Shown here piece after piece: positions 2,484 to 62,103 of a stretch of DNA of 64,000 nucleotides. The position numbers and the translations under genes are program-made. The DNA lies in IMG/VR virus record IMGVR_UViG_3300028026_000005, positions 22,962-86,961 of that record; one strand, given 5' to 3'. The notes beneath the pieces are model-generated. The model saw only the letters and a list, made by a program, of their open reading frames with translations, was not told where the DNA came from and searched no databases. Numbering within the stretch: the first letter of the stretch is position 1; each line of letters starts with the position of its first letter. This DNA comes from a virus.

Positions 2484-3906
2484 GTCTAAGTATCCAAAGC
2501 CTTTCAACGCTGACAAGAAAGCGATTGATCTACCTGTTCTGGCTCGTCCTGAAAAATGGCGATTTGTTATACAAGAGCATGTTGCCGACAAAGCTGGTAG
2601 GCACTATGACGTGCGTGTAATAGACCCAAAGGGGAAGATTGCTTACTCTTGGGCTGCACGCAGACTGCCTGCTAATGGGCAAATAACTGGAGCGTTTAGG
2701 CAACCAGACCACTCAGTGGCCTCGGCTGAGTTTGAAGGTAGCATCCCTGAAGGGTACGGTAAGGGTGAAGTGAGAAAGATTATGGATGCTGATGCAGATA
2801 TATTGTATTCTGGCCCACAAAAGATGCGCTTAGCTATCCATAAGGGCAAGAGAACAGATGAGCTTATTTTCATTAAGGGTAAAGACAGGGACGTCGCAGA
2901 TAGCTGGATGTTACGGAACATTACACCTACGAGGAGCAAGCTCAACATACCTGCTGATAAACCTGCCTATAAATCAATAACGGAAGAGGAAGCGAATAAG
3001 CTTATAGCGGCTGATAATTGGTTAGCTATGCCAAAACTTGACGGAGCTGCAGTGTACATACGATTGCGACCAGGAAAGCAGATGCAAGTTTTTTCTTACC
3101 GTCCACCGAAAGGGAATCCTGATGAATTAATTCAACACACTTATAGAATTCCACAGATAGTAGGTCAGCCTATAGACAAGCTACCCAAGGGAAAGAAAGA
3201 AATAATCTTAAGGGGTGAGTTGTATGCTCTCGGAGAGGACGGGAAAGCGTTACCTTCGGAAAAGATAAGTGGTATCCTTAACTCTGGGGTAGTGCGAAGT
3301 CGAGAACTTCAAAAGAAACAGAAAGTAAGAATGAGGCTTGCGGTTTTTGATGTTGAGTCGGTTGACGGTGTTAATTTGAGAACGACGCCTTACTCGCAGA
3401 AGCTTGACTTATTAAGAGAGACTAGCATAACCGTTCCTCATTTGGACGTTCCAGTATTCGCAATATCCCCAGAGCATAAGAGCGAGCTTTACGATCAAAT
3501 AAGGGCGGACAAGTTTCCAGACACAAGCGAAGGTCTCGTATTTTGGAAGCTTGACGAGCCTGCTGCCCCACGTAAGATGAAGTTTCGCGAGCAGTACACA
3601 GGGTATATCAAAGGAATATTTCCATCAACAAAGCAAGGAGAAGCAGGAGGCTTACAGGTCTCATGGAAAGAACACTCAGAGCCAGTTGTTCGAATTGGTA
3701 CAGGATTTTCTCGGCGGCAAAGACAGGATATGCTTGCAAGACCGGATCAGTATCTAGGCCGGAAGATTTCCTTTACTGGACAAGGTGTTTACGAAAACAA
3801 AGACAACCCTAACTTGTCAACTGTAAGGTCTCCATCGTTTCAGCATATCCACATGGATGAATCGGACCTTGTTGATGTGAATACAGAGAAGAGGAATAAT
3901 GATTAA
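2476..3906 (+). CDS. ATP-dependent DNA ligase with N-terminal LigD-type 3'-phosphoesterase domain
   Basis: N-term FVIQEH..RHYDVR..SWA..DH..FEGSIPEGYGKGEV (LigD PE signature); ligase motifs PKLDG (I), LRGELY (III), VFDV (IIIa), EGLVF (IV), RKMK (V); OB-fold RIGTGFS and RSPSF; GGAG precedes ATG 2476 (track start 2470). Confidence 0.9.
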   Translation: MSKSKYPKPFNADKKAIDLPVLARPEKWRFVIQEHVADKAGRHYDVRVIDPKGKIAYSWAARRLPANGQITGAFRQPDHSVASAEFEGSIPEGYGKGEVRKIMDADADILYSGPQKMRLAIHKGKRTDELIFIKGKDRDVADSWMLRNITPTRSKLNIPADKPAYKSITEEEANKLIAADNWLAMPKLDGAAVYIRLRPGKQMQVFSYRPPKGNPDELIQHTYRIPQIVGQPIDKLPKGKKEIILRGELYALGEDGKALPSEKISGILNSGVVRSRELQKKQKVRMRLAVFDVESVDGVNLRTTPYSQKLDLLRETSITVPHLDVPVFAISPEHKSELYDQIRADKFPDTSEGLVFWKLDEPAAPRKMKFREQYTGYIKGIFPSTKQGEAGGLQVSWKEHSEPVVRIGTGFSRRQRQDMLARPDQYLGRKISFTGQGVYENKDNPNLSTVRSPSFQHIHMDESDLVDVNTEKRNND

Positions 3907-4084
3907 ATACTTTAATTCTGAAAGCTTTTCAGGGCAAAATATCATTTGTTCTAATTGTGGGAATATAATTGGGGAAGATGGAGACTCAGCAAGACAGCTT
4001 TGCAAGGCTTGCAGAGAAAGACTAAAAGAGGCAGAAGATGAGCAACAGCGTAATATACACTCGAAAGATAAGCCCGAGAATTAG
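3899..4084 (+). CDS. Small zinc-finger protein
   Basis: CSNC...CKAC pairs in a 61-aa ORF overlapping the ligase stop. Confidence 0.55.
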   Translation: MIKYFNSESFSGQNIICSNCGNIIGEDGDSARQLCKACRERLKEAEDEQQRNIHSKDKPEN

Positions 4085-4865
4085 CGATGACCCATTCCGG
4101 GAAGGGGTAAAAATATTAACTTGGGCAAAGGGTTGCACGGAAGAGTGTTCTTTTTGTCGGTCTGGTGCAGGTGAAGGTCTGATCTTGTCAGATAAGCCAA
4201 ATGATATTGACTTAGTTGTTCGTAAATTCCTCAGACAGGAAACAAAACCAGTTGTTCTTGATGCTACTGTAAATATTGATGGATTTCTTGAGCCGGTTGC
4301 TGCGGAGTTGGTGAGGGTCATAACAGCTTTTGCTGACAAAAATAAAAACTTAAAAGAGCATAAACTCTTAATTTCAACTAGACAAGCTAAAGTACCCAAC
4401 CTCTTTGCAGCAACCTGCCCTGAAATGAATAATATTATCTTCAGAGTTTATCTTACCGCTTGGGATTTATATGCCATGTATGAAACAGGCTGTCCATCCC
4501 CATTTGAGCGTATTCAGATGCTGCAGTCTCAGCCATTCCAATCATTGCTTGCAAGAGGAGCTAAGGTTGAAATAGTGTTTGGACCTGTTGCCACTGGCAG
4601 ATTCATGTTCATGCGTACGACTATCGATAGCTTAGCTAAAGCCAACATTGTACGTTTTGTACGGATTCAACCTATTGAAATCGATCCGCAGTACGAAATA
4701 ACAGCTCAACAAGCTTTTGTATGCGGACATTATAAATTAACTAAGGACTCATCGACTCGAAAGATGGTACTGAGGAAAAACGCAAGAGACGAATTAATTG
4801 ACAAGGTGACCCAGTACGTTGAGCAGAAAGGGTTTCAAGTTATTTCCGATTCGCTTGAGCACTAG
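4038..4865 (+). CDS. Radical SAM protein, spore-photoproduct-lyase-like
   Basis: GCTEECSFC = CxxxCxxC; later ETGCPSPFERIQML..RGAKVEIVFGPV resembles the EPGAPxPxERL..GIPVGVxIAPI segment of SPL-like radical SAM proteins. Confidence 0.6.
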   Translation: MSNSVIYTRKISPRISDDPFREGVKILTWAKGCTEECSFCRSGAGEGLILSDKPNDIDLVVRKFLRQETKPVVLDATVNIDGFLEPVAAELVRVITAFADKNKNLKEHKLLISTRQAKVPNLFAATCPEMNNIIFRVYLTAWDLYAMYETGCPSPFERIQMLQSQPFQSLLARGAKVEIVFGPVATGRFMFMRTTIDSLAKANIVRFVRIQPIEIDPQYEITAQQAFVCGHYKLTKDSSTRKMVLRKNARDELIDKVTQYVEQKGFQVISDSLEH

Positions 4866-4881
4866 AGCAACCTTCTTCCTT

Positions 4882-4924
4882 CCCCCTCCTAAGCCATAAA
4901 GGCCTCTTGGAGGGGGTTTCTTTT
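4882..4924 (+). terminator. Probable intrinsic terminator
   Basis: CCCCCTCC (4882-4889) pairs with GGAGGGGG (4909-4916), followed by TTTCTTTT. Confidence 0.65.
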
Positions 4925-5387
4925 GTCTTTTTTGCAGGTAAGCTTATATGTGATAGATATTAATGTGATTCGCATAGACAAGGTAACCGAAGAAGTTAGT
5001 CTTGGGTTTGGGTCTCAACCCAGAACGTGCATTGGAAACCGAAAGGTAGTGCAACAGTTTGTGATGGGAATGTTGACCGATAAAGGCAGCGACTTTATGA
5101 GACCAGGTTTTGGTGGCGGGCTATCTACTATGCGAATAAACACTTACTCAGCCGGAGAAGAGGGATTGCAGATTTTTACAGCTGATATTGTGGATAGGAT
5201 GCGCTCTGTGAGGGATGAAATCATTGCAAGTCAACCAAAGGCAACAAAGTTGTTAGCAAGCGAAACCCTACTGAGGGCTGAACTTAAGAAGATTAATTTG
5301 TTGAGCGGGGAGCCTAAAATAGCAATTCACATAGACGTAATAACAGGCGATAACTCTCGCAAAAGAATACATTTAGAGCGGAGCTGA
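4923..5387 (+). CDS. Baseplate gp25/gpW-like protein
   Basis: GNRKVVQQFVMGMLTDKGSDFMRPGFGGGL resembles the gp25-family LLT..GS...P..G motif; lies directly before a baseplate J-like gene; true start probably slightly downstream. Confidence 0.7.
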   Translation: MSFLQVSLYVIDINVIRIDKVTEEVSLGFGSQPRTCIGNRKVVQQFVMGMLTDKGSDFMRPGFGGGLSTMRINTYSAGEEGLQIFTADIVDRMRSVRDEIIASQPKATKLLASETLLRAELKKINLLSGEPKIAIHIDVITGDNSRKRIHLERS

Positions 5388-6571
5388 TGGCTAGTTACTG
5401 GGATCGATTTAAGGATAGTGTACTAGAGGGGTTTAGGGATGGGGTTGATGCCATTGCTGAAATCTTAGTAGAATACAGCCCAGAGCTTGACGTTAGACAG
5501 GGGACAGCTCTTCATGAGTTGATGATTAAGCCTATAGGGGTAACTAACGCTACTATCCTTCAGAACCTTGAAACGCTCATCGATCGGCTTTCGTTGGTTA
5601 ATTACGAGACTATGGCTGAAGCCGACATGGACAGGATCGTTTCAACTATTTTTATTTACAGACGCGAGGGAAGTAAAGCTAGAGGTGTTGTTCGCATATA
5701 TTTTGAAGAGCCTTTATCCGTAACGGTGTCTACTGGAGTGGTAGCGGTTGATGACTTAGGCCAAAGATTTGTTGCTGCAAATTCATATAGCTACCCAATC
5801 TCTGAGGTAATGAACAAGAGAGATGGAATGCTCTATTATGTGGATATTGTCGTTGAGGCTGAGGAAGAGGGTGAATCGTACAATATTGATGCGCATAAGA
5901 TTATCTCGTTAGAAGGTCTGAATGTCCCTTGGGTTAAGGTCGACAATCTCTATGCCATTTCATCAGGTCTTAACAGGGAGACTAACCAGGAACTGTTCAC
6001 ACGATCTCGTGATGGATTAACTTCTCGAACTTTAGCTCACAAGAGAGGTATTCGTCAATTCCTTTTCGAGAAATTTGATGCAATTAAGGATGTTGTTGTT
6101 ATTGGGTACGGTGATCCTGAGATGCAGAGAGACATAGCAAGGCAGGTAATTTTAGATTCCCGTGATCCAGAAGAAGAAGCGAACTTTTTTGCTAAGATAC
6201 AAGGGACTGACAACCCTAACCCGCATTACTTATATAAGGCAACCTTAGAAGAAGGGGATTTACCTCTACCGACGATAATAACGCTGCCACAAAACGAAGT
6301 TTCTCAAGATGACTACAATATTATTGGGCAAAAGAATTTAAGCCATATCACTTACGAGACAAATATTATCTTCCAAGACGATTTTGGTCGATTAGACGAT
6401 AATGCCGTTGGCAACGACTGGGTTAGCGGAGAAAATGACTTAAGCTGGGGTAAAGAATTGATGGGCCGTGAATGTCGCGTAGAGAACAAGCGGCTGATAT
6501 TGGGTATAACAACCGTTACTGACGAGGAAGAGCAATACTTAAACAAATGGAGCGCTAACCTTGACTCATAG
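5387..6571 (+). CDS. Baseplate wedge (J/gp6-like) protein, N-terminal part
   Basis: DVRQGTALHELMIKP, IYRREGSKARGVVRIYF, VEAEEEGESYNI, SGLNRETNQELFTR..LTSR are typical baseplate J motifs; ends in the start of a lectin-like fold. Confidence 0.8.
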   Translation: MASYWDRFKDSVLEGFRDGVDAIAEILVEYSPELDVRQGTALHELMIKPIGVTNATILQNLETLIDRLSLVNYETMAEADMDRIVSTIFIYRREGSKARGVVRIYFEEPLSVTVSTGVVAVDDLGQRFVAANSYSYPISEVMNKRDGMLYYVDIVVEAEEEGESYNIDAHKIISLEGLNVPWVKVDNLYAISSGLNRETNQELFTRSRDGLTSRTLAHKRGIRQFLFEKFDAIKDVVVIGYGDPEMQRDIARQVILDSRDPEEEANFFAKIQGTDNPNPHYLYKATLEEGDLPLPTIITLPQNEVSQDDYNIIGQKNLSHITYETNIIFQDDFGRLDDNAVGNDWVSGENDLSWGKELMGRECRVENKRLILGITTVTDEEEQYLNKWSANLDS

Positions 6572-7811
6572 TTTAGGCCACTCAGTGGCTTTATTGGGCG
6601 GGAGATTCCCGGTTGACCACGCAACGACAGTATTGAGGTCAGTGAGAGCCAATGAATTTGGATCTTCGATTGGCGACGTGCTTTCAGAAAGGTTGAAAGA
6701 GCTCTTCAGAGAAGAGAAGGAAGAGAAGGATAAAAAACTCGAGAGAAAGAAAGTATCTCAAGCAGAGAAAAGGAGTACCATGGACGTATCGAAAGAGGCT
6801 AAGAGACTGTTCAAAGGAGCGGTAGAGATGGCTGGTGAAACAGGCCCCTTCGGCTCTCAACCAGCGCCGCCGGTAGCTGGACAACAACAGCAGCAACAAC
6901 AGCAACAGGTGGATCCAGCGAAGCAGCAGTTGTTGACAGATATCCAGGCTGTCCAAGGCATCGTACAGAACAGGATGAATGCTGCGGCAATTATACAGGA
7001 AGGTATAGCCCAAGTCCAAGGGGAAGAGTTAGCCAAGTATTTGCAAGAGAAATTTGCAGTGCCTGTTGAAACAAAGGAAGAGCTATCCTCATTAAGCACC
7101 TTAGAAGGAGCTATGGCATGGGCACAGAACAAGATATACGAATTTGGTGGGACAACCCCTATGGGCGGTAACATGATGTATATAGCTCAAGCACTTAACT
7201 TGAGCAGTTCTCCTCACGAGATAACCATAGGGCTAGGGGGTATTAGCGGTATTGAGATGGCTGGAACACCACCAGAACAAGACGCTAAGCAAGCAAGCTA
7301 TACATTAACCCCTCCTGAACAAGCTGTGCGCACCAAAAGGATTTTGGCAACTAAGGTAGCCAGCTTATTTAAGGGTGGAGGGACTTTGCCTCCAGGTGGA
7401 GTCTACAATTCGATAGGGGAAGTTGCAAGGCAGCAGAATATTGCTAAGCTAGGGCCTGCAGGGGCGCAGATGACGCTAAACGATTTAACTAAAAAGAAAA
7501 ACAAGGCTGTGCACCAACTTGCGGCAGGACCTCCTCCTATGCCAACAGCTGTTCCTTTCAAGGTGGCTGGTTTGTATAAGGGGGCTTCTTCCGACAGTGA
7601 TAAAATTACTCGCAGCGAATTACTCGCTTTAGCAAGTGCGGCAAGGCGAGAGAATGGCGGGGTTGCCAATTTTGGCAAAATTAAGACCGTTGAGGATAAA
7701 CAAAAGAACTTGGAAAAAGCCTATGGGGCTTTAGGGGAATCTATTCTCAGTGGGAAAGACCCTGCCACCATAGTTCAGAATTTAAGTCGCGCAACTGGCG
7801 ACAGGCAATAA
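6561..7811 (+). CDS. Putative internal-head/virion protein with K-x-A motifs; strong start at ATG 6780
   Basis: AAGGAG-tacc-ATG at 6770-6782; SKEAK, KQASY, KVASL, KVAGL motifs; poly-Q tract. Confidence 0.7.
   Translation: MTHSLGHSVALLGGRFPVDHATTVLRSVRANEFGSSIGDVLSERLKELFREEKEEKDKKLERKKVSQAEKRSTMDVSKEAKRLFKGAVEMAGETGPFGSQPAPPVAGQQQQQQQQQVDPAKQQLLTDIQAVQGIVQNRMNAAAIIQEGIAQVQGEELAKYLQEKFAVPVETKEELSSLSTLEGAMAWAQNKIYEFGGTTPMGGNMMYIAQALNLSSSPHEITIGLGGISGIEMAGTPPEQDAKQASYTLTPPEQAVRTKRILATKVASLFKGGGTLPPGGVYNSIGEVARQQNIAKLGPAGAQMTLNDLTKKKNKAVHQLAAGPPPMPTAVPFKVAGLYKGASSDSDKITRSELLALASAARRENGGVANFGKIKTVEDKQKNLEKAYGALGESILSGKDPATIVQNLSRATGDRQ
6576..6590 (+). repeat. GCCAC-N3-GTGGC palindrome copy (GGCCACTCAGTGGCT)
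   Basis: Seen directly, starting 5 nt after the baseplate stop codon. Confidence 0.85.
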
Positions 7812-7831
7812 CAACCAACTAAGGAGCGACA

Positions 7832-8224
7832 ATGAGTCCGCAAAACCATAACAATCCAGTAGTGGAAGGTAAAGACTTAGAGTTTATAACTAAAATCGCC
7901 GTCTACTTTGCATATCAAGGCAGTAGGTTGGCCGACCATGTGTTTCGTCTTGAAAAGAATGCGGCTGCCATAGACGGCGTATCAGGGTTTATGGCTGGAC
8001 ATACTGACCAGACAACTCAACAGGAGAAGAATATCAACGGCCAGGCGATGCCAAAGGTGGACAGTTCCGGTGCTGTTGCTTCATCTCCAACTCAGAAAGG
8101 TGGAATGATTCAGGGTGGAAACATCCCTGGCATTGGAGGCATAAACGCAGGGACACCTACCCCTAAGAATGAAACCAGTAAAATAGCATCAGCCTTGCAA
8201 ACCCTTGCTTCAATTATGCGCTAA
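7832..8224 (+). CDS. Putative internal-head protein (K-x-A family)
   Basis: AAGGAG RBS; TKIAVYFAYQGSRLADHVFRLEKNAAA module shared with the next ORF. Confidence 0.7.
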   Translation: MSPQNHNNPVVEGKDLEFITKIAVYFAYQGSRLADHVFRLEKNAAAIDGVSGFMAGHTDQTTQQEKNINGQAMPKVDSSGAVASSPTQKGGMIQGGNIPGIGGINAGTPTPKNETSKIASALQTLASIMR

Positions 8225-8235
8225 AGCTTAGCGAT

Positions 8236-8928
8236 ATGAATGACCGAACGACACTTTGCTCAGCATCCGACCTGTTAAATCAAAAAGATTTGACGGTTAG
8301 CGGAGCTATTAAATTTGCAGGTGCTTCAAGCGCGATTAAAGCCGTTGGCACAGTTGCAAAGAAGGTGTTTGGCAAAGGTGGAAAGATACAAGCATTTATT
8401 GCTAAAGGAGGATTAAAGACCTTAGGTAGAGGAGCCGCGAGGACTGCAGGTGATGTTGCGGTTTGGTCGGCAGCTGATGCATTAATTGGCAAAGCCGGAG
8501 ATGCGTTAGCTAAAGCCAAGGAAGAAAAGGATTCTCCTGGCAAGAAGAAACGAGAAAAAAAGAACGGGCAGCAGCCCACAAAAAAACAAGCCCAAAATCA
8601 GGGTTTAGGTAAACAAGGAGCAGAAATGAGTCTCTTTACAGCTTTAGTAGAAACCCAGAAGACTGCAGCTGCAGATGAAAACATTCAAAAAATAGCCGGA
8701 GCGCAAGAGAACCAGCAAGATGACTGGATGAACAATGTTGCAAAAGTGGCAATGTATTTTGCTCACCAAGGAAGGACTCTCGCTGATAAAGTATTTAGGA
8801 TTGAGAAATTAGCGGCCTCTGGCGTAGAGGTGCAGCAACAAGCTGAAGAACAACAGGCGACTATTGGCCCACTAACCCAAGCTGCGTTCGTAGTTGAGAC
8901 TGCTGCCGGCAACCTTCCGGTAGAATAG
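8236..8928 (+). CDS. Putative internal-head protein (K-x-A family) with internal start at 8626
   Basis: IKFAG, KTAAA, KIAGA, KVAMY, KLAAS; AAGGAG-cagaa-ATG at 8615-8628 in frame. Confidence 0.7.
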   Translation: MNDRTTLCSASDLLNQKDLTVSGAIKFAGASSAIKAVGTVAKKVFGKGGKIQAFIAKGGLKTLGRGAARTAGDVAVWSAADALIGKAGDALAKAKEEKDSPGKKKREKKNGQQPTKKQAQNQGLGKQGAEMSLFTALVETQKTAAADENIQKIAGAQENQQDDWMNNVAKVAMYFAHQGRTLADKVFRIEKLAASGVEVQQQAEEQQATIGPLTQAAFVVETAAGNLPVE

Positions 8929-8940
8929 TAACCTGTTGCA

Positions 8941-10596
8941 ATGGCTGAGCAAATACTGGATTTATTCCCTGTTGTCTTCCGTGATATCTCACGGGACAAT
9001 AACGTCAAAATAACAGGAACCTTCAGGACTTCTGATAAAAGTGCTGAAGGTCGCCCCTGTTACATTCTTATCAGAAGGCCAAACGAGGTTGATTCTGATG
9101 GGAAGAATCTTTTGACTCAAGGGTTTGGTATTGCTTGGCGCAAGTCTTCGGCGGGTTGTCCAAATCTGTTTGTCGTTGATCAGTCTATTGATATTCCAGA
9201 AATGGTTGTTGACGGAGCTGATATTGCTATGGGTGAAGCGCAGAGGCAATATCTAGCTCACGCTTACAAGGAGATCCTAGTAGATACAGACTATAAGTTT
9301 GAGCTAACGATTAACAACCAAAACGCGGTTCAGCTCCGCATCTGGGAAAGTAGTGCCAGTCGCCCGATAGTTGCTGATTTAACTTACGGCGCCTATCGGG
9401 CACTGACGTCTGGTACCTACTTTGGAATAGGAGTTTTGGGTACAGAAGGTGGAGAATGGCAATTTGACGACTTGACAATATATGGTTTAGGCCCCGAGTA
9501 CGCAACCTACATAGCCTCTTTTGAGACATCGTTTATCCCTGTAACGGCTGATATTATGGTTAGAGGGTATGGTGTTGGCAATAACTCCGGGGCCGAAGGC
9601 TATGGTATCGAATTGCTTATTTTTAATTACACCCAAAACAAGTGGGAATTAATAGGTTCTAACTCGGCAAGCGAGATGTCATCCGTAGGAGATAAGACAA
9701 TAACGCTAAATGACTTCCAGTTTTACGGAGAAAACGCTGATGATTATATGTCACCTAATGGAGCGCAGCGAATCTTCTTGATGGTAAGATCAAGGTACCC
9801 ATCTATTATCAATGACGATGTAACTATACAATCTAAAGTTGGGTTAGACTACGTTGAAATAGCGGGGTATATAGCTTCAGGGTTTCATGCTGGAGGGAAA
9901 GTTGACATATACGTGAGAACAACCAACCGTACAGCAACTTCTCAAACAGTGTTATCAGCTCCAAAAAGAATCAAGTTAGTAAAAGGACAATTCAACCTGC
10001 CTATTGCACGAATAAAAAGGGTAGTCTTGCTTGATGCCAGTTTAAGCGAGATAGGCGAGCTTACTAGTTCGGAATGGACACTAGAGGTTATTGATCAAGA
10101 AACAAGGTTTTCTACTGAAGAGCTGCTAGTTATCGTTATTGACGATGCCTATCTGTATAACCCTATTAAGATTGAATATGAATATTTCGATAGCGTTCAA
10201 GACGTGCAGAACGCGCTTAATGAGGAAATGACATCCGTGACAGGGTTGGCGGAACCTGGAACAGATTTTCTAGCTAAGGAGCTCATTCCCGCCTTTATAG
10301 ACGTTAACGTTGAGTATAGAGGGCCTGATGTTGAGCCTGCAGATGTAAAGGCTTCGATAATTTCGTGGATTAACACTACGCTAACAACAAGCTTTGAGAA
10401 GAGCGACTTGGTGGCTTACATGTATCAACTTGGAGCAGATTACGTTAATTTGGATGAGATGGACGTTGTGGTGTCTGTAACCAAGAAAGATGGCGGAATT
10501 GACACCTTTACTGTTGCTGACGCTGTTACCCTTCAGCGTATAGAGCGATTTATTGCAGATAAAGTAAATGTAACCCGGCTTGCGGAGGAAACATGA
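8941..10596 (+). CDS. Baseplate wedge (J/gp6-like) protein, C-terminal part, preceded by a lectin-like beta-sandwich
   Basis: GFHAGGKVDIYVRT and C-terminal DVNVEY..VKASIISWINT..FEKSDLVAYMYQLGADYV match the baseplate J C-terminal pattern. Confidence 0.65.
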   Translation: MAEQILDLFPVVFRDISRDNNVKITGTFRTSDKSAEGRPCYILIRRPNEVDSDGKNLLTQGFGIAWRKSSAGCPNLFVVDQSIDIPEMVVDGADIAMGEAQRQYLAHAYKEILVDTDYKFELTINNQNAVQLRIWESSASRPIVADLTYGAYRALTSGTYFGIGVLGTEGGEWQFDDLTIYGLGPEYATYIASFETSFIPVTADIMVRGYGVGNNSGAEGYGIELLIFNYTQNKWELIGSNSASEMSSVGDKTITLNDFQFYGENADDYMSPNGAQRIFLMVRSRYPSIINDDVTIQSKVGLDYVEIAGYIASGFHAGGKVDIYVRTTNRTATSQTVLSAPKRIKLVKGQFNLPIARIKRVVLLDASLSEIGELTSSEWTLEVIDQETRFSTEELLVIVIDDAYLYNPIKIEYEYFDSVQDVQNALNEEMTSVTGLAEPGTDFLAKELIPAFIDVNVEYRGPDVEPADVKASIISWINTTLTTSFEKSDLVAYMYQLGADYVNLDEMDVVVSVTKKDGGIDTFTVADAVTLQRIERFIADKVNVTRLAEET

Positions 10597-10901
10597 CAGA
10601 CAGTAATCCAATCTTAACGGCACTGGGTGGCCTTAAGCCTACACTGCTTGAGCAAGAGCCTCCGACACAGCAGCCTGTGCAACCATCGAGCCCAGCTCCA
10701 CAGGTAGCTTTTGGAGCGCCTACCCCCATTCAACCAGCTGCTGCTGGTAACAATCCAGCTGTGAATCAACAGCAAACTGCATTGACTCCACCGTCGTTTG
10801 CTAAGGGAGTAAAAATAACCCCACCTAAAGTTGCGAGTACTTTTATTGACAAACTTGCAATGAAAATAGTGTTAGGCGCCAAAACTAGTAAGGCAGGTTA
10901 G
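10593..10901 (+). CDS. Pro/Gln/Ala-rich hypothetical protein
   Basis: GGAGG RBS; low complexity; ends IDKLAMK. Confidence 0.6.
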   Translation: MTDSNPILTALGGLKPTLLEQEPPTQQPVQPSSPAPQVAFGAPTPIQPAAAGNNPAVNQQQTALTPPSFAKGVKITPPKVASTFIDKLAMKIVLGAKTSKAG

Positions 10902-10905
10902 AACA

Positions 10906-12093
10906 TTGGCTTACGGTAACTATAAATACTTACCAGACGAGGTAGCTAACCTTTGGAAGGTTCTTGCGTCTTATTGGCGTCAAATGTTCAAAGCCTCGGA
11001 CATTGATTTAATGGAGCATGTTTGGTATTCAATGTTTGAGACTAGCAAAACACATCGCTTTAAGTACATAAGGGTGTTGTATAGTAGGGCTCTCGAGTCT
11101 TTTTACAACGCTTTTTACGAGAAGAGGTACTGGGTAAAATTTGAGTTTACTAGCGAAAACCAAATCGATACGGCAGGCAAAGTATTCAAGGTTGATGGCA
11201 GTATCGCTAAATTGGCAGTGTTGCAGAGCAATCTTCTAGATACAAAAGACAAACTTGATGAGGGTTCACAGTTTACCTTTGAGCCTGGAACTTGGGTGCC
11301 AAAAGTTAAAGATAGTTACGAAAGATTTTGGGAAGGAAACTTTAAGGCTTCGAGAGTAACGTTTGCGACAGCGCCAACCTTACCTGTCACATACTGGTCC
11401 CCTGAAGTACAATATAATAGAGCGTTGGCGGCAAAACTATTTGGTATGCTCGTAGATTACGCTAGAGTGCAAAATTGGGGCGGCTCAAAAGGGAAGTTCT
11501 CAGAGCGTCAATATGTGAAGGCAGTTGCTACGTTGATTAGATGCTACTTGGACGGTCCTTGTTTTAAGTCGATTTATTCTGGTCTTAGTGCAATGTTGTA
11601 CTTGCCAACAGCTGATGCTGATGGTGTCATTAGTCAAATAGTAAAGAATGGCAACATTTACACCGTCAAAATCATTGCTGATGACGGTAAGGAGGAATTT
11701 GAGCAGGTGTTACCAGAGGGGTTCGACCCAAGAGTCGCTGTCGGTGATCATGTAGTTACTTTCGAACCTTTGACAAATGCGGTACATATTGGTACTAACA
11801 AAGAGGAAAATTGGAAGCACACAATGTGGCATCTTCGTATTCCGCAAAATAGATTTACTGTGTTTGTACGCATCCGAAATGATGTCCCGTTTTTATCTGA
11901 CACCCTAGAGGATGCGGAGACATTTTTAGACAATATACTGTCTGCCAGTAGAGACTGGAGGATGTTATTTGTCGACAAGCAGAATGATCCGCTTTGCCCT
12001 ATGTGTATAGTTGGCGAGACGGAAATGAATCCCGCAAACATTGCGCCTTACTCGACGATAATTTCGCTCGGTAGGCCTTTGGTATTTAGTTAG
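10906..12093 (+). CDS. Putative baseplate/wedge structural protein
   Basis: 395-aa ORF in the baseplate cluster; N-terminal LASYWRQMFK..DL pattern recalls wedge proteins of large myoviruses. Confidence 0.45.
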   Translation: MAYGNYKYLPDEVANLWKVLASYWRQMFKASDIDLMEHVWYSMFETSKTHRFKYIRVLYSRALESFYNAFYEKRYWVKFEFTSENQIDTAGKVFKVDGSIAKLAVLQSNLLDTKDKLDEGSQFTFEPGTWVPKVKDSYERFWEGNFKASRVTFATAPTLPVTYWSPEVQYNRALAAKLFGMLVDYARVQNWGGSKGKFSERQYVKAVATLIRCYLDGPCFKSIYSGLSAMLYLPTADADGVISQIVKNGNIYTVKIIADDGKEEFEQVLPEGFDPRVAVGDHVVTFEPLTNAVHIGTNKEENWKHTMWHLRIPQNRFTVFVRIRNDVPFLSDTLEDAETFLDNILSASRDWRMLFVDKQNDPLCPMCIVGETEMNPANIAPYSTIISLGRPLVFS

Positions 12094-12101
12094 GAGATTG
12101 C

Positions 12102-12659
12102 ATGGGAACAACAGATTATACTCAACAAAGCACTTGGCTTGATGTTACGCTTGCTAATACAGCGCGAGGGCTAGATACTTCTGGCTCATACTCTGCAAAG
12201 TGGGAAGCCAACGCTCAGCCGACGATAACTATCAGTGAATCAGCTGCACACTACGAAACGTGGTTGTGGGAAATTCAGTTATTGCTTTCGTCTGACTTGG
12301 GATTTGACGTTAATAGGGCATTTGAAGTAGTCCTCACGTCATCAGTAACAGCATATAGTCGCACGATCTTTAGCATAAGCGATACAATGGAATTTATTAA
12401 TAGGGCTGCTTTACGCTTTGAGTCAATGCCCATAAAGCTTGTGCAAAACGCTGAGCCGACGGTTTTATTCAAAACAGTACTAGCTCTTAGGCCTGGACAG
12501 CAAATCTTGCAGGGGGATACTCTTAAAATTATGCACTCGAATAGTGGAACAGAAGAAACCAATAATGCAAATTTAACAGGAACAATGTGGATTAATGTCC
12601 ATACTTCCAGGTATTATGGTGATGACGTCAAACGACATTACCAAGTACCTACACCTTAG
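12102..12659 (+). CDS. Hypothetical virion protein (beta-rich)
   Basis: AGGAG RBS; Thr/Ser-rich; located in the structural cluster. Confidence 0.6.
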   Translation: MGTTDYTQQSTWLDVTLANTARGLDTSGSYSAKWEANAQPTITISESAAHYETWLWEIQLLLSSDLGFDVNRAFEVVLTSSVTAYSRTIFSISDTMEFINRAALRFESMPIKLVQNAEPTVLFKTVLALRPGQQILQGDTLKIMHSNSGTEETNNANLTGTMWINVHTSRYYGDDVKRHYQVPTP

Positions 12660-12661
12660 GA

Positions 12662-14185
12662 GTGGTAATGTTTATAGATACTCTAGCAGAAAAACTTGCG
12701 TTAAAAAAAGTAGCGGGCCCTTTTATGAAGAAAAGGACGCGACGAAAGAGTAAAAAGCCGACGCATAAACCACCTAGCGTAAATCACCCAAGCAAAAAGA
12801 AACCTGCGAATAAAGGGCCTGAAAGTAAGACGCTCGGCAGATTAAGCGACCAAGTGGCTTTACAGGCTGGAATTGATCCTAAGATGCTAGGCTTGCAAGA
12901 CAGATTGATTATAAACAATGCAGTTGTGAAACATTATGATCCAAGTACTCCAGAAAGAAGTTTAGCAAAAGCCACTGTTATTGCAGGTAAAAAATTTCTC
13001 GGAATGCAGCAAGAGATTGAACATGCGGAAAAGATTAAAAAAGCGCTTAGCATAGCCAAAGCGAAAAAGTACGGCATACGGGCTGCTGTTGGCGCTGGGG
13101 TTTTAGGCGCAGGGATACTTGGGGCTAGAGCCGCTCGTGGAGACGGACAGCCTATGGTGGTAATTGCTCCGCCAGAAGAAGAATTAAATAAAAAGGAGAT
13201 AAAGATGGCATCAATCAACGCTAATGATTTTTTAGGTAACCTCGCTCTGCATATGGTGCAGACAAAGCTTGCCAGCAATCAAGCAGAGCAACCAAAAGGC
13301 GTCCAAGCGCTCATAGAAAAACTTGGCTTTGCAGGAAAACCGATAACGCCTAAGGCTAAACCCAAGCCTATTAGTCTTACAAAAGGAACAGTCCCTACCT
13401 CGAATAACGTTCCTTCTGCTGTTCGCCCTGACAAAATTGATATGTCTAAAGCGGTGCCAAAATCAGGCACGAATCCAAAAGTTAAGGTTGGGCCGCTTCT
13501 CTCTGGAAGCACTTTTGGGTATCAGAAAAAGATAGATCTATCTAAGAACAAGACGCCCAACCCGTTGGCTAAGAAAAGCTCACTACTGAAAGGAGCTGGG
13601 CCTCAGCCCAATTTTTTTAACTCTCTCAAGGAAACCTTTAGTCCGTTAGCACAAAACGCGGTACAGTTTTCTAGTAGAGCCGTTGACGCCGCTAGAGCCG
13701 GTGGAGCAGACTTGCTGCGTGGAACAACTAAGTTCTACAACGAAACAGTAGTGCCAACATATAGAACTAGGGTTTCCCCTTTTCTCCAAGAGCTTAATGC
13801 GAGAGGCGCACAAGTAGCCGACAATGTAAAGAACAAACTGCTCGGTATACCGAGAGGTGTTGGAGCCACGCCAACAAATCCTGTTACTCCTGAAGTTGCT
13901 GGTCCGTTCAAAACACCTTGGGATAGCAGACAGGCTCAATCGATCCCTACCGCCTCAGCGGTTAATGTTGTTGGCCCGCAGATACCCAACAGAGGTGGAA
14001 TACTAGGCGGCGTCCAAAATATCGGAAAGAATATGGGCGGCAATGTTGGGCAGTTTGTCGAAAACAAGCCTGGTGCAGCGTTAGCCATAGGTCTTGGGGG
14101 CACTGCTTTAATCGGCGGCGCACTAGCAAGACTTCTTAAGAAGAAGAAAGATAAGGATAAGGAAAAAAAAGAGTTAGGAGTATAG
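12662..14185 (+). CDS. Basic putative internal-head/ejection protein with Gly/Ala hydrophobic segments; internal start at 13205
   Basis: EKLAL, KKVAG, KMASI, KLASN; hydrophobic AAVGAGVLGAGILGA and AALAIGLGGTALIGGALA segments. Confidence 0.7.
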   Translation: MVMFIDTLAEKLALKKVAGPFMKKRTRRKSKKPTHKPPSVNHPSKKKPANKGPESKTLGRLSDQVALQAGIDPKMLGLQDRLIINNAVVKHYDPSTPERSLAKATVIAGKKFLGMQQEIEHAEKIKKALSIAKAKKYGIRAAVGAGVLGAGILGARAARGDGQPMVVIAPPEEELNKKEIKMASINANDFLGNLALHMVQTKLASNQAEQPKGVQALIEKLGFAGKPITPKAKPKPISLTKGTVPTSNNVPSAVRPDKIDMSKAVPKSGTNPKVKVGPLLSGSTFGYQKKIDLSKNKTPNPLAKKSSLLKGAGPQPNFFNSLKETFSPLAQNAVQFSSRAVDAARAGGADLLRGTTKFYNETVVPTYRTRVSPFLQELNARGAQVADNVKNKLLGIPRGVGATPTNPVTPEVAGPFKTPWDSRQAQSIPTASAVNVVGPQIPNRGGILGGVQNIGKNMGGNVGQFVENKPGAALAIGLGGTALIGGALARLLKKKKDKDKEKKELGV

Positions 14186-14187
14186 TC

Positions 14188-14940: not shown

Positions 14941-14955
14941 TTTAACGGAGGAATA

Positions 14956-18207: not shown

Positions 18208-18211
18208 TGTT

Positions 18212-18232
18212 AAGGCCACCAAGTAGCCTTTT
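18212..18232 (+). promoter_or_regulatory. Degenerate GCCAC-N3-GTGGC family hairpin (AAGGCCAC-CAA-GTAGCCTT-TT)
   Basis: Intergenic, one mismatch from consensus, followed by a T run; may be a weak terminator. Confidence 0.5.
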
Positions 18233-18249
18233 GCATTTAGGAGGCAAAA

Positions 18250-18657: not shown

Positions 18658-18666
18658 GAGATAAAA

Positions 18667-19062: not shown

Positions 19063-19072
19063 GCGAATAGCC

Positions 19073-22568: not shown

Positions 22569-22610
22569 TGAAAGGCCTTGACATGAGCGCTCAAGTACAT
22601 ATACTAACTT

Positions 22611-37540: not shown

Positions 37541-37780
37541 ATGAAACTAAAGTTATGGACAAAGTGGTGGGAATGGGTTGTCGCAGGAGTTTTATGGGCT
37601 ATAGTTGGCCACTTAGTGGCTGTGTACTGCACTTTAACAGCTATAACAGTACCTACTCTCGTCATAGGTAAAATTATTGGGCTAGCTATCGTTCTTTTGG
37701 GTGCAGTTTCAATCGTCATAGGTGTTGCTTTTTTTATGTCCAGTGTTAACAAATTAGTGGAGAAGATTAACAACCAGTAA
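37541..37780 (+). CDS. Small two-helix membrane protein
   Basis: AGGAG-aaaaa-ATG at 37541 (track start 37526); two long hydrophobic segments. Confidence 0.7.
   Translation: MKLKLWTKWWEWVVAGVLWAIVGHLVAVYCTLTAITVPTLVIGKIIGLAIVLLGAVSIVIGVAFFMSSVNKLVEKINNQ
37607..37622 (+). repeat. GCCAC-N3-GTGGC copy (GGCCACTTAGTGGCTG)
   Basis: Seen directly; 15/16 identical to the reverse complement of 38707-38722. Confidence 0.8.
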
Positions 37781-37850: not shown

Positions 37851-37878
37851 TTGACAAAAGTAAAATTGGTGTTATAAT
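37851..37878 (+). promoter_or_regulatory. Consensus sigma70 promoter with extended -10
   Basis: TTGACA-N16-TATAAT with TGn before the -10. Confidence 0.85.
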
Positions 37879-38371: not shown

Positions 38372-38706
38372 AGTGCATTACTGGCTTTCGTAGTCACGGT
38401 AATCTTTGCGCGCCCAATAATAGAAGTTTAGCCAAAAGCTTCTTGCGGTCACGAAAACCTGTAGCAAGGGATTGCTCTTGTATGGGATAGAACTATCTAA
38501 AAATTTTTAAGTTCAGCTTTTCAACAATTTATTTCTTTTTGAGATTCAACTTTTCAATTTCAGTTATTAATTTAGTTTTCTAGTTTTATCGTGATTGCAT
38601 CCTTATTTTTTAGCCATCGCATTTCAGCGTTCCATAGTGTCTCTATATCATTTCCCAATAGATGTTATTCGTCCGTCCCGCTAGGCTCGCTTTTCTTGGT
38701 AAAATT

Positions 38707-38722
38707 CAGCCACTGAGTGGCC
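38707..38722 (-). repeat. GCCAC-N3-GTGGC copy (minus strand GGCCACTCAGTGGCTG)
   Basis: Plus strand CAGCCACTGAGTGGCC. Confidence 0.85.
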
Positions 38723-42127: not shown

Positions 42128-42153
42128 ATATCAATTCCAACAGGAGGCTTTTA

Positions 42154-43185
42154 ATGCCTAATTTGACAATAAGACAGGTAGGAATAGGGGTGCCTACTAG
42201 TAGAGGCGCTGGTTTTGAATTTGTGGATAAGATAAGCACTTCTGTTGCCGACCAAATAACAAAAGACAGCTCTCCGGCATTTGAGCCTAATCCCCTAATT
42301 TTTGCCGAAGCTGTAAAAAACAATTTAACAGAAGAGCAAATAAAACGTGTTTGCGAACAAGTGAACGTTAAGATCTATAAAAAGTTTTTTGACAGGAATA
42401 AACCTGCTGATATTAGATTCGAACTGGCTAACGCAGCCGAGGTTTGTCGCAATGTTAAGAGGCATCGGAAAGAAATTGAACCAAGCTTAGAGCCTACCGG
42501 AGGGATGATCAAAGAGACCGAAGCCGACCTCAAAGAGTTAGCTAGAAAAATAGTTAAATCTGGCGGGATTCGTTCACCGGAAGTAGATTATACAGCACTG
42601 ATGGGGTTAAAATCATTCGACGTGAAGCCACCCAGTGGCTCTATGAGCAAAGAGGCGCAAGCTGTCGTTGATTTTTTCATTAAAGAAGCTGGTAAAAATG
42701 GTAACGTAGGTGGATTTAGGGGAATAGATCGTACTGGGTTTGCAACAGTAAAAGCTAAGGCTATGCTGAACGACTTAGAGCGAAAGTATATAGTTGCGCT
42801 GAACAAGCATGGGAAATTGTATAGTTTGCTGAAGCAGGCCTATGTTCTTAATTTGATAGACGACGGAGCTAATCCTGTTGAACCGTACTGGTTGTTAGAA
42901 AAGATAGCTGCGGAGAATAAAAAAGTTGCTGAACATATTGAGGTAGTTAAAGCTAGTATTGATGCTGGACTCTCTGAACTTGTCTCGAGGAGATTTTTGC
43001 CAAATGATTTCTCGCTACTGGGGAAGACTGCAAGCTTGAGATATAAGATTGCCCCAGTTAACTACGACAACACCATTGCGCAGAACATGGTTAAACTTGC
43101 CGAGGCCTATCACGAGTCATCCATATTGCTTGAAAACATAGAAAACGTAAAAAAGGCTATTGCTATCATGGAGGCGTTAAAGTGA
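42154..43185 (+). CDS. Putative internal-head protein (K-x-A family)
   Basis: AGGAGG before ATG 42154 (track start 42082); SKEAQ, IKEAG, LKQAY, EKIAA, GKTAS, VKLAE. Confidence 0.7.
   Translation: MPNLTIRQVGIGVPTSRGAGFEFVDKISTSVADQITKDSSPAFEPNPLIFAEAVKNNLTEEQIKRVCEQVNVKIYKKFFDRNKPADIRFELANAAEVCRNVKRHRKEIEPSLEPTGGMIKETEADLKELARKIVKSGGIRSPEVDYTALMGLKSFDVKPPSGSMSKEAQAVVDFFIKEAGKNGNVGGFRGIDRTGFATVKAKAMLNDLERKYIVALNKHGKLYSLLKQAYVLNLIDDGANPVEPYWLLEKIAAENKKVAEHIEVVKASIDAGLSELVSRRFLPNDFSLLGKTASLRYKIAPVNYDNTIAQNMVKLAEAYHESSILLENIENVKKAIAIMEALK
42626..42640 (+). repeat. GCCAC-N3-GTGGC copy (AGCCACCCAGTGGCT), intragenic
   Basis: Perfect 6-bp arms, loop CCA. Confidence 0.7.
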
Positions 43186-44613: not shown

Positions 44614-44621
44614 GGCCAAAA

Positions 44622-49944: not shown

Positions 49945-49968
49945 TGAGGCGGCTTTTTGGCCGCCTCA
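49945..49968. terminator. Stem-loop after the capsid gene (terminator/attenuator)
   Basis: TGAGGCGGC-tttttg-GCCGCCTCA; lacks a long U tract. Confidence 0.55.
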
Positions 49969-49984
49969 AATCTGGAGGATAATT

Positions 49985-50512
49985 ATGTCGCCAAATTTTC
50001 CTGAAAGAACATACCCAACGCCGATTACGATAGAGGTGTTGCCTAGCAGTTGGGGCGTAGGTACTCTTGTTATAGGAAGAATCCTATTAGAGGGTCCTAC
50101 TGAAGAAAAGACATTGTTCACCGTATCTGCTGCGCAGGCCACGAAGTCGTCAAGAGCAATCAGAAAAAGTGTAGAGAGGGGAATAATAGAAGTACATGAA
50201 ACACCTATTGCAGCTTCTTCTAAAGAGAAGAAAGAGAAGAAACTGAAAGACGAAAAGAAAAAGTTCTCCAATGAAGATGACAGTGAAGTAAAGATACTTT
50301 CTTTCAACGAAAGTAAAAAGAACAAGATTATTTCTACTGGTCCTGAAACTGGTCCTGAAACTGGTCCTGAAACTGGCCCTGAAACTGGTCCTACTGGTCC
50401 TGAAACTGGTCCTGAAACTGGCCCTGAAACTGGCCCTGAAACTGGTCCTACTGGTCCTGAAACTGGCCATACTGGTGGCAGTAAGAAAAAGAACAGAAGG
50501 AAAAGAAAGTAG
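49985..50512 (+). CDS. Hypothetical protein with TGPE repeat tail
   Basis: GGAGG RBS; charged linker, (TGPE)n, basic C-terminus. Confidence 0.7.
50336..50470 (+). repeat. 12-nt tandem repeat (ACTGGYCCTGAA) encoding (TGPE)4-TGP-(TGPE)4[10 protein letters not shown]
   Basis: Seen directly. Confidence 0.95.
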
Positions 50513-50539
50513 AATGCAAAGTAGAAAGGTGTCTCGTTA

Positions 50540-50995
50540 ATGCCTCTAGGTAAGTCAAAGATGACGATGGAAAAGTACATCGCTATTGTTCGGGTTAAAA
50601 TTAGGGATTACCCAGAGCTAAATCGCCTAGAGAAATTCGAAAAGGCAATAAATTCAGATGCAATGATTGCGATGGCTATAGAAACAGGGCTTGAAAAATT
50701 TAACGGGACACCTCCATCTACAAACGTAACAGTCGAAACGTTCCCAAGAAAATATTTGTTAGTTGACTTAGCTCTGTTGGAGTTGCTTATTTCTGAAGGT
50801 CTGTTTTATACTAAAAATTCTCTTTCTTATCAAGATGCGAGAGTAATGATTTCAGATAAGGAGGGCAAGGATAATTCGACGATGATGTGGATTAAGCAAT
50901 TTATGCAAACAACGATACTTAGTACTCGGGAATTCAAAAAAGAACAAAATCTTCGTGGAGCGTTTGGGGGGATAAGCTCTGGTTATGCCAGGTAA
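50540..50995 (+). CDS. Head-tail adaptor/neck protein
   Basis: [21 protein letters not shown]; position after the capsid gene. Confidence 0.6.
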
Positions 50996-52733: not shown

Positions 52734-52748
52734 GGCTACTCGGTAGCC
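52734..52748 (+). repeat. GCCAC-N3-GTGGC family variant with compensatory change (GGCTAC-TCG-GTAGCC)
   Basis: Intergenic, 20 nt before the sheath start; both arms changed while symmetry is kept. Confidence 0.7.
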
Positions 52749-60879: not shown

Positions 60880-62015
60880 GATATTTGTACTCCTTTACTC
60901 AGGGCCTGCCAACTCCAGCTTTGCAAGGCCGCCATAAGATATGCGCCGATTTCTTTTGCTATTGGCGAAGAAGTCGCCCCAGAGCTTCCTGGCAAAGTTA
61001 TAGGGAGATTGGCAGGTAAAAGTGTTGTTTCAAGAGGCGCTCCTGGCGCCTGTGGGGGGCCTACTATGCAGTACATTGCAAACGTCCACAACATTGCGAA
61101 CAAACTGTTTCCTCGCACTGCTTGCTCGTATCCGATGGGTAGAAATCCTGGTGCAGGTAGTTTTGGCCCAGGAAACACAAGACCATTGCCTAAGCGTACC
61201 CATTTTGGCGAGCTAATAATAATGTTACCGTTTGGTTTCAATACTATAACGGCACGAATCAGTTGCGGTTCCGCAGAGCCATGCACGGGACCTATTCGTG
61301 GCATGAAAGGCGTTTCCGTGCTAAGCAATGGGATGCTTCCAGATTCTACTCGGATCTCTCCGTTTTTGTCGATATGTATTCGCGAGTTCTCAACCCTTGT
61401 CACGGCATTGTTTGTGTGCATCTCAAATACACCATTATTTTTCCCTGCTCTGATAGTGACAACTTCTTTTGTGCCAATTAATGGCTCTTTGTCACGAACT
61501 TTCATTGTAAACGTCGTCTCCCCTTCATCGTTATCCCATTCTACCCTACCTCCATCTGTGTCCATGCTGAATTTCGAGCTATGCAGTTGTATCCAGCCTG
61601 TAGGCGACCATAACATATTTGCTCTTGCGCTTGCAGCAACGATGACGGACCCGTCGCGCAGGAGTTGCATCCTACCTCCTCCGGGACCAACTATAGTTCT
61701 TCCTCCTCTTTGAGGTTTTTCTTTATATTCTGGGGCTTCGTTGGTGCCTTCTTTATTAGCTCTTAGCGACCCAAGAAGGAACATTGTGTGTGGATCCTCT
61801 CCGTCTCGACCGTCGTGCCACAGCATCATTAAGTCTCCGGCTTGCGGGATAGAGATGTCCCCAGAAGAACCGTCGGGGCGTTGATCGATGGACGCAATAT
61901 TTACGTTCCTAAATCTTTTGCCTCCATTAACTGTAACAACATCAGCTGTCCCATTTACTGGATTGCTCGATATGATTTGAACACATTCGGCTCTGTCGAT
62001 TATACCACTACTCAT
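60876..62015 (-). CDS. Baseplate hub/spike protein (gp5/gpV/VgrG-like N-terminal OB fold)
   Basis: GTADVVTVNG..FRNV..SIPQAGDLMMLW OB-fold pattern followed by beta-helix-like repeats IHIDKNGEIRVES. Confidence 0.65.
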   Translation of the reverse strand: MSSGIIDRAECVQIISSNPVNGTADVVTVNGGKRFRNVNIASIDQRPDGSSGDISIPQAGDLMMLWHDGRDGEDPHTMFLLGSLRANKEGTNEAPEYKEKPQRGGRTIVGPGGGRMQLLRDGSVIVAASARANMLWSPTGWIQLHSSKFSMDTDGGRVEWDNDEGETTFTMKVRDKEPLIGTKEVVTIRAGKNNGVFEMHTNNAVTRVENSRIHIDKNGEIRVESGSIPLLSTETPFMPRIGPVHGSAEPQLIRAVIVLKPNGNIIISSPKWVRLGNGLVFPGPKLPAPGFLPIGYEQAVRGNSLFAMLWTFAMYCIVGPPQAPGAPLETTLLPANLPITLPGSSGATSSPIAKEIGAYLMAALQSWSWQALSKGVQIS

Positions 62016-62056
62016 GCATTAAGAATACCAAAATTTTTGCAAAACGAAAGCTCAGG

Positions 62057-62085
62057 TTGACAAAGGTTAATTGAGGTGCTATAAT
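62057..62085 (+). promoter_or_regulatory. Consensus sigma70 promoter with extended -10
   Basis: TTGACA-N17-TATAAT, TGc before the -10. Confidence 0.85.
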
Positions 62086-62090
62086 TGAAA

Positions 62091-62103
62091 GCCGCTGAGT
62101 GGC
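62091..62103 (-). repeat. GCCAC-N3-GTGGC family variant (minus strand GCCACTCAGCGGC)
   Basis: Flanked by AAA and TTTTT; sits at the predicted +1 of the plus-strand promoter and upstream of the minus-strand operon. Confidence 0.7.

Follow-up and report, generated by a model that had tools for sequence, protein, structure and literature searches.

Here we describe a dispersed family of small palindromes, built on GCCAC-N3-GTGGC, in the genome of an uncultivated, vent-associated phage, where two copies stand in inverted orientation around the only HUH nuclease gene of the sequence record. The stretch under study is a 64,000-nucleotide (nt) window, bases 22962-86961 of the 98,576-bp IMG/VR record IMGVR_UViG_3300028026_000005; coordinates without a prefix refer to this window and those marked "genome" to the whole record, whose CheckV completeness is ~53%, with about half of the genome lying outside it. 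Copies of the same phage with >99% identity occur in an epibiont metagenome, from which the record probably comes, and in a hydrothermal-vent metagenome. We tentatively propose that the palindromes are the cognate DNA sites of the HUH (Rep-class) nuclease of the phage, in a REPtron-like arrangement with side effects on gene expression. This reading comes first in a fairly flat ranking, followed by a promoter and an RNA hairpin, which we rank level, then by an operator and last by ordinary terminators.

The palindrome is far too frequent for its background. Dinucleotide shuffles of the window predict 0.03 perfect copies where four are present, and 0.95 copies with at most one mismatch where 12 are present. 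Over the whole record there are six perfect copies against 0.023 expected, and GCCAC-N3-GTGGC ranks first among all 5-3-5 hairpins; the highest count that any GC-rich stem reached in controls was 3-5, in controls that kept intergenic copies unshuffled. The excess also holds inside genes under a synonymous-codon shuffle, which preserves each protein and its codon usage: 2-3 perfect copies were observed versus 0.085 expected, and 9-10 copies with at most one mismatch versus 1.7 +/- 1.2. The spacing is just as strict, since the spacer is exactly 3 nt in six of the seven GCCAC..GTGGC pairs that lie within 60 nt of each other. A chance origin is excluded, the post-hoc choice among 1024 stems being allowed for. 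All eight sites listed in a first-pass annotation of this DNA lie where it had placed them and read as it had given them, and the enrichment that it suspected is borne out by both kinds of shuffle. Its notion of a genome-wide control element is likewise supported, in the sense of a non-random, polar, cis element concentrated at gene borders; the protein that reads it and a role as promoter are separate matters.

Relaxed searches brought the family to ~14 members, degenerate copies counted, and added sites outside the window: longer-stem intergenic members at genome 3351, 9049 and 19299 and perfect copies at genome 15583 and 95941 (copies within the window are given in Table 1). Members are dispersed over the entire 98.6 kb at intervals of ~1-19 kb. 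The copy at 2708 is a doubtful one, probably constrained by the protein that it encodes. The long-stem copy at genome 3351 is followed directly by a gene (genome 3386-4018, outside the window) for an HNH endonuclease with a helix-turn-helix-like C-terminal tail.

The conserved core of 13-17 nt is a wider dyad than the stem, RR-GCCAC-T-N-A-GTGGC-YY, with the half-site RRGCCACT. Outer loop bases (positions 1 and 3) are complementary in 13 of the 14 members, as is the first flanking pair, and the second flanking pair is so in 11; the central base is the sole unconstrained position, and eight different loops occur. At stem position 3 most copies have C-G, while genome 9049 (+ strand) and 18215 (minus strand) have T.G and 52735 has T-A, a C-G/T.G/T-A series; in four copies the stem is lengthened to 8-13 bp by unrelated flanking sequence. 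Both the series and the extensions are signs of real pairing. A second sub-type, GGCTAC-TYG-GTRGCC followed by TTAA, comprises 52735, 10619, genome 19299 and, reversed, 18215.

The element is also polar, because of a tag on one side and not because of its loop. Five of the six perfect copies have ATAG on the outer side of one arm, at a distance of 0-5 nt (background 4.8-6.3%, combined p ~2e-6), and no other of the 256 tetramers does as well beside perfect copies; the tag is missing from most degenerate ones. Two of the five tag TAGs also serve as stop codons and three do not. By its tag the element points rightward at 6577, 37608 and genome 95941 and leftward at 38709 and 42627; with its tag on the right, the 42627 copy is antisense to the gene that hosts it (ORF, or open reading frame, 42082-43185; 367 amino acids, aa). 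The first-pass annotation had instead derived polarity from the loop, which was said to read Y-(A/C/T)-R at every copy when taken on the strand of the local gene. This rule breaks down at genome 95941, a copy beyond the window whose loop reads TGA in a + operon, and arguably again at 62091. That copy had been assigned to the minus strand, with the spike-terminase operon, but it begins 5 nt past the -10 box of a + strand promoter matching the sigma-70 consensus at 12 of 12 positions, at about +1; because of this rightward promoter and a wobble pair on the + strand, it is better placed with the + transcript than with the minus terminase operon, and on the + strand its loop is TGA.

Ten of the 14 members are intergenic, though intergenic DNA makes up only 5.7% of the total (p 3e-10). 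In seven of the intergenic copies, 20-28 nt separate the end of the palindrome from the next start codon and 10-17 nt separate it from the Shine-Dalgarno sequence. These copies keep this distance even in spacers of 52-122 nt, the distance from the preceding stop codon ranging over 0-83 nt. Under uniform placement such anchoring has a P of 2e-4, or of 1.3e-3 once 14 nt are set aside for ribosome binding. It is the strongest argument that the element bears on the expression of the downstream gene and, whichever protein reads it, the element marks borders where the expression of a poorly annotatable phage is likely controlled. Apart from the polymerase and the HUH nuclease described below, almost no ORF matched Pfam or PHROGs, the exceptions being a terminase, a ligase, a PD-(D/E)XK nuclease, a baseplate wedge protein and an HNH endonuclease, and the genes beside the palindromes mostly have no function that these databases could name. 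The earlier claim that several copies lie just upstream of structural genes stands, as to position, for 18215 (22 nt) and 52735 (20 nt); 6577 is 190 nt from the ATG at 6780; the labels "sheath" and "XRE" were not reproduced by either database.

What could read such a site? The HUH gene encodes a protein that matches Pfam PF23343 with an E of 1e-7 and 32.6 bits, above the family cut-off of 27.8. It has the HUH motifs in their order (motif I, the HUH motif and the catalytic Tyr) on an HUH fold, and T28, T30, E69, H77, H79 and Y119 are invariant in an alignment of 19 sequences, distant homologues gathered by an exhaustive search. An AlphaFold2 model made with an alignment reaches a mean confidence (pLDDT) of 90, compared with 45 for a single-sequence fold. 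Its nearest folds are geminivirus Rep, RepB and the Rep of adeno-associated virus, with Foldseek E values of only ~1e-2; the RAYT structure 4er8 ranks 43rd.

The HUH gene is bracketed by palindromes. The two copies, with arms at 37607-37622 and 38707-38722, are inverted relative to each other and match over 16 nt with 94% complementarity, each lying ~300 nt from its end of the gene with its ATAG tag facing outward. In its account of the motif, the first-pass annotation had not weighed this bracketing. We estimate the chance that two of six sites would bracket this gene at ~0.003, or at ~0.03 if ten "interesting" gene classes are allowed for. Around the rep genes of homologues, a CCAC..GTGG hairpin lies within 100 nt in two of nine contexts versus ~0.3 expected, a weak signal from short contigs. 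The right member of the pair sits just past the intrinsic terminator of a minus operon. Between it and the HUH gene, the non-coding stretch at 38490-38620 is, judging by its letters, a candidate origin-like or iteron region. A likeness to M13 was considered and dropped: the M13 origin hairpin GTCCAC-N11-GTGGAC does have ATAG beside its right arm, but gpII belongs to PF05144 and not to PF23343.

With this anatomy, these statistics, the bracketing and the identity of the protein in hand, we envision the following. A consensus site would consist of ATAG, 0-5 nt and RR-GCCAC-T-N-A-GTGGC-YY, a polar dyad able to form a hairpin. Like other HUH enzymes, the nuclease would recognize a short duplex stem with a nearby single-stranded tag and would nick or rejoin there. 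The inverted copies with outward tags would bracket the HUH gene as REPs (repetitive extragenic palindromes) bracket the RAYT gene in a bacterial REPtron, and solitary copies would be bound or nicked in trans. Copies may have spread, or been retained, where they are harmless, in the spacers between genes; once transcribed, they would form sense-strand stem-loops near the next ribosome-binding site and may thereby affect expression. The outcome of binding might be selfish spread, nick-primed replication or recombination, or regulation. The anatomy suits an HUH substrate, with its conserved stem, free centre, fixed 3-nt spacer and asymmetric tetranucleotide tag. Copies also occur in both orientations and within genes (two of these perfect and tagged, one antisense), as expected of an element that acts at the DNA level and not of an mRNA signal. 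An HUH nuclease as reader accounts for the stem with its free centre, the tag, the signs of pairing, the orientations, the bracketing and the restriction to one lineage.

The element seems to function most like REP elements with their RAYT, without being a member of that family. The REP palindromes of E. coli carry GTAG on the 5' side of their foot, and binding is seen only with their single strands (PMC3333891). The phage repeats resemble REPs, BIMEs and REPtrons (PMC3333891) in being short, dispersed and mostly extragenic palindromes, five of the six perfect copies having a tetranucleotide near the foot of the stem (GTAG in REPs, ATAG in the phage), in flanking the genome's only HUH gene and in varying by point changes that preserve pairing. 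They differ in that REPs are imperfect palindromes of 30-40 nt present in hundreds of copies, whereas the phage unit is half as long, perfect in six copies and numbers ~14, with a virus as host, a variable tag distance, an HUH enzyme of the Rep class PF23343 instead of a Y1 transposase, and copies anchored to downstream start codons. Bacterial chromosomes are where tagged dispersed palindromes serviced by an HUH enzyme are known to occur; they are not known from the genomes of lytic-type phages, nor with a Rep-class enzyme. If the proposal is right, the phage would offer a second, independent route to REP-like repeat families and a compact pair of enzyme and site, a 148-aa protein and a ~20-nt sequence. 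In its fullest form, for which our confidence is slighter, this would be a viral REPtron-like system whose 148-aa Rep-class enzyme recognizes ATAG-tagged mini-palindromes of 13-17 bp that it has itself seeded at gene borders, to be used for nick-primed replication, for the exchange of modules or as punctuation beside ribosome-binding sites.

Several observations weigh against the HUH nuclease as reader. Passive, REP-like scatter without a target-site preference would not be expected to anchor copies 20-28 nt before start codons. The complementarity of loop positions 1 and 3 in 13 of the 14 members fits recognition of a double-stranded dyad better than that of a hairpin. The tag lies at a variable 0-5 nt from the stem, a distance that is fixed in REPs, and the unit measures only ~15-20 nt against the 30-40 nt of a REP. 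The nuclease is of the Rep class and not a Y1 transposase, for which (PF01797) no gene matched in the record; control genomes did match. Its family is that of rolling-circle initiators, because the homologues are plain replication initiators carried by small replicons of 0.7-9.7 kb, some of them visibly circular. Moreover, no insertion polymorphism was seen; runs X1-X3 contain the same phage at >99% identity, with no substitution or indel at any site, and are uninformative on both conservation and mobility. Finally, the co-occurrence of HUH gene and motif rests on one genome versus two relatives. These two, both distant, keep the polymerase and lack the HUH gene and any recurrent GC-rich hairpin, a joint absence that speaks for the HUH nuclease; one of them (G002) has 16 copies of TTAAA-N3-TTTAA, all within genes. 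No closer relatives came to light: scans of viral contigs with three proteins gave only relatives of 23-33% identity or none, and megablast against phage records gave no match. The proteins that host intragenic copies have no homologues in the two distant relatives. A hybrid, in which binding of the HUH protein to the sites regulates expression as well, would account for all that was observed.

A second candidate for the reader is the polymerase of the phage. The 2385-aa ORF at 30360-37517 is indeed, as the first-pass annotation had it, a fused RNA polymerase: a single-chain beta-beta' enzyme of the multisubunit type, with matches to Rpb2 domain 6 and Rpb1 domains 1-5. It has >1000 homologues in metagenomes, the closest 37% identical, and in both distant relatives it is split, beta and N-terminal beta' lying together and C-terminal beta' ~26 kb away. 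In the promoter that it might use, the dyad and the upstream ATAG would be recognized, the AT-rich run that follows the 3' arm would melt, and transcription would start a few nt downstream, giving a leader of 12-20 nt with a Shine-Dalgarno sequence. We regard this as unlikely, though were it true, these would be the first promoters defined for the large clade of single-chain beta-beta' phage polymerases. A phage polymerase requires promoters of its own, and the palindrome is the most conspicuous intergenic motif, yet the 5' ends of long late operons lack it, both in the spacer before 42082 and in the one of 264 nt before genome 21327. Most intergenic copies aim at the next gene, by tag or by wobble, and their tight distance to start codons would suit a promoter or a 5' untranslated region; 18215, however, points the wrong way, and 38709 would fire antisense into the HUH gene. 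A perfect antisense copy within a gene and an inverted degenerate copy are predicted by neither a promoter nor an mRNA signal, and known promoters do not look like a dyad whose centre is free. Upstream of the minus terminase operon there is no sigma-70 match of at least 10/12, and the sole conspicuous element found there is the 62091 copy; absence from relatives whose polymerases are 30% identical is what co-evolving promoters would show.

There is, in addition, a competing promoter word. The word TAAAATAG, or (T)AAAATAG, stands 43-71 nt before seven start codons, as seven of its 25 + strand copies against ~0.9 expected, and may be a -10-like promoter word that works without a -35 box. The host polymerase, too, very likely reads some phage genes, the HUH gene included. 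Three sigma-70 promoters are perfect at 12/12 (37851-37878, 62057-62085 and genome 15900-15927), and in two of the three a hairpin follows 5 nt later, which places it at the 5' end of the transcript. Among the palindromes, a consensus sigma-70 promoter precedes the 62091 copy alone; none of at least 10/12 adjoins any other copy. A sigma-70 promoter of 11/12 at 22578-22611 has its -10 box ending 5 nt before the ATG of ORF 22611-23450, whose mRNA would be (nearly) leaderless; it is the nearest strong promoter of this type found upstream of the long + gene run that contains the polymerase gene.

The first-pass annotation had likened the palindromes to the hairpin promoters of phage N4. These are three in number, lie at one genome end and are conserved from -17 to +1, a GC-rich centre at -11 included; a T7-like single-subunit virion polymerase reads them once supercoiling has extruded the hairpins, with SSB (PMC4496689). 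Common to both are a small GC-rich hairpin, a 3-nt loop and a phage with its own polymerase. Clustering and a conserved centre, which define the N4 promoters (PMC4496689), are nevertheless missing, since the sites described here are dispersed and their middle base is unconstrained; as far as the record shows, which is about half of the genome, the type of polymerase differs too, the only one found being multisubunit. A T7-like polymerase was not found either, the PF00940 profile giving no match in the record and, equally, none in control genomes.

The palindromes might instead act as RNA, as sense-strand hairpins that punctuate polycistronic transcripts and serve a stem-specific RNA-binding protein or endoribonuclease as processing or stability signals. 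The RNase III sites of T7 and the stems recognized by Cas6/Csy4-type enzymes are analogues. We give this no better odds than the promoter. Intergenic members lie between co-directional genes and stop 10-17 nt short of the Shine-Dalgarno sequence, the double change at 52735 is compensatory, and most copies would fold with -6 to -10 kcal/mol. Sense RNA folds better than antisense in seven of the ten intergenic copies, with advantages of 9.0 kcal/mol at genome 9049, 6.8 at genome 15583 and 4.1 at 62091, but the bias is not significant (~0.06 one-sided, by our estimate). A sigma-70 transcript would begin with the 62091 hairpin, and the HUH promoter has a different hairpin in the same geometry. Other copies weaken this reading: one perfect tagged copy is antisense, 18215 has a C.A mismatch on the sense strand and 38709 lies beyond a terminator. 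Besides, the loop, usually the part that is read, is what varies most, and yet its outer bases are complementary in 13 of the 14 members. Rfam and tRNA scans gave no match, and the palindrome fits no Rfam family.

The PeSL (promoter-early stem-loop) cassettes of T4-type phages, ~100-bp composites that always include a sigma-70 promoter (PMC2839356), provide a nearby comparison. Like them (PMC2839356), the phage elements are conserved stem-loops with G-T pairs, placed in spacers that run from a stop codon to the Shine-Dalgarno sequence of the following gene, and 62057-62103 recalls one PeSL class in which the stem-loop lies just downstream of a strong sigma-70 -10 box. Unlike them, only one phage copy is clearly joined to a promoter, the spacers measure 37-58 nt and conservation is confined to the stem. 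The authors of that work speculated that a specific DNA-binding protein may target the conserved stem (PMC2839356).

A DNA-binding protein of the ordinary kind would make the palindromes double-stranded operators for a dimeric phage regulator, a repressor at +1 of an early promoter and a roadblock or activator at gene borders. To us this is more doubtful still. The dyad of 15-17 bp has half-sites RRGCCACT, an exact spacer and only its central base free; one site spans -1 to +13 of the strongest sigma-70 promoter, and sites occur in both orientations and also within genes. A symmetric dimer would leave the asymmetry of ATAG unexplained, however, and the long unrelated stem extensions, together with the C-G/T.G/T-A series, imply pairing and not the reading of half-sites. 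No HTH_3 or ParB_N domain was found in the 98.6-kb record, which is about half of the genome. The minus ORF at 41546-41965, the "XRE" protein of the earlier reading, has no Pfam match even at an E of 10, and an XRE regulator was dropped, as was a ParB/parS system. This ORF has an 11/12 sigma-70 promoter at 41971-41998. Many copies of a short protein-binding word, often in short intergenic spacers, are familiar from the stoperators of mycobacteriophage L5, which are asymmetric 13-mers of a temperate phage with a known repressor, and from the parS/sopC sites dispersed in phage-plasmids such as N15, parS systems needing a ParB. The phage palindromes differ from both in their stem extensions and compensatory changes, and from parS in the lack of a ParB in the record.

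That the copies are ordinary intrinsic terminators or attenuators sharing a stem by chance is very improbable: they do lie 0-23 nt after stop codons, with T-rich tails at 6577, 18215 and (on the + strand) 62091, but most have no T-run, a scan of 1-20000 lists neither 6577 nor 18215, the genome's clear terminators have stems of 8-11 bp and runs of T7-T10, and generic terminators share no stem sequence, fixed 3-nt loop or tag.

Table 1. Palindrome copies in the window and features discussed with them (window coordinates unless marked "genome" or given for a relative).
Feature	Position	Strand	Remarks
One-mismatch copy	2708..2720	-	Within ligase gene; encodes DHSVA of phosphoesterase motif
Perfect copy, GCCAC-TCA-GTGGC	6577..6589	+	ATAG tag 6568-6571, its TAG the stop of ORF 5387-6571; G..T closing flank
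One-mismatch copy, GGCAC-TGG-GTGGC	10619..10631	+	Within 11-bp imperfect palindrome, TTAA flanks; 26 nt past 10593 start codon
Degenerate copy, 8-bp stem, GGCTAC-TTG-GTGGCC	18215..18227	- (by wobble and TTAA flank)	In + operon; 22 nt before 18250 start
Perfect copy, loop TTA	37608..37620	+	Within small membrane-protein ORF 37526-37780; ATAG tag 37601-37604; left member of inverted pair
Perfect (12/12) sigma-70 promoter of HUH gene	37851..37878	+	Different leader hairpin 5 nt after
HUH endonuclease, Rep class (PF23343), 148 aa	37925..38371	+	Motifs FVTITY, HHHALI, YCFKRL
AT-rich non-coding stretch	38490..38620		Two 21-nt direct repeats; between HUH gene and right palindrome
Perfect copy, loop TCA on minus strand	38709..38721	-	Tag is CTAT at 38723-38726 on + strand; right member of inverted pair
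Perfect copy, loop CCA on + strand	42627..42639	- (by tag)	Tag is CTAT at 42641-42644 on + strand; within ORF 42082-43185
Doubly changed copy, GCTAC-TCG-GTAGC	52735..52747	+	Pairing kept; then CTTAAAA; 20 nt before 52768 start
Perfect (12/12) sigma-70 promoter, TTGACA-17-TATAAT	62057..62085	+	Reads into 62091 copy and genes from 62230 on
One-mismatch copy, GCCGC-TGA-GTGGC	62091..62103	+	AAA/TTT stem extension; G.T wobble on + strand
Word (T)AAAATAG	5316, 8180, 10863; genome 1718, 7038, 9031, 16427	+	Genome 9031 word directly precedes palindrome copy
Split polymerase of relative	G002:C1:13516-17766 and 43463-44908		G001 likewise

Two further features of the record deserve mention. The stretch 50335-50470, in the minus ORF 49966-50580, is repetitive; the assembly of the source run is broken into short contigs there, with two 3-nt deletions (50444 and 50462), and it is a variable tandem-repeat region within a gene. 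Outside the window, a second small palindrome with a 3-nt loop, (A)GGGG-TAG-CCCC(T), occurs at genome 763-779 and 89591-89609, in two long intergenic regions.

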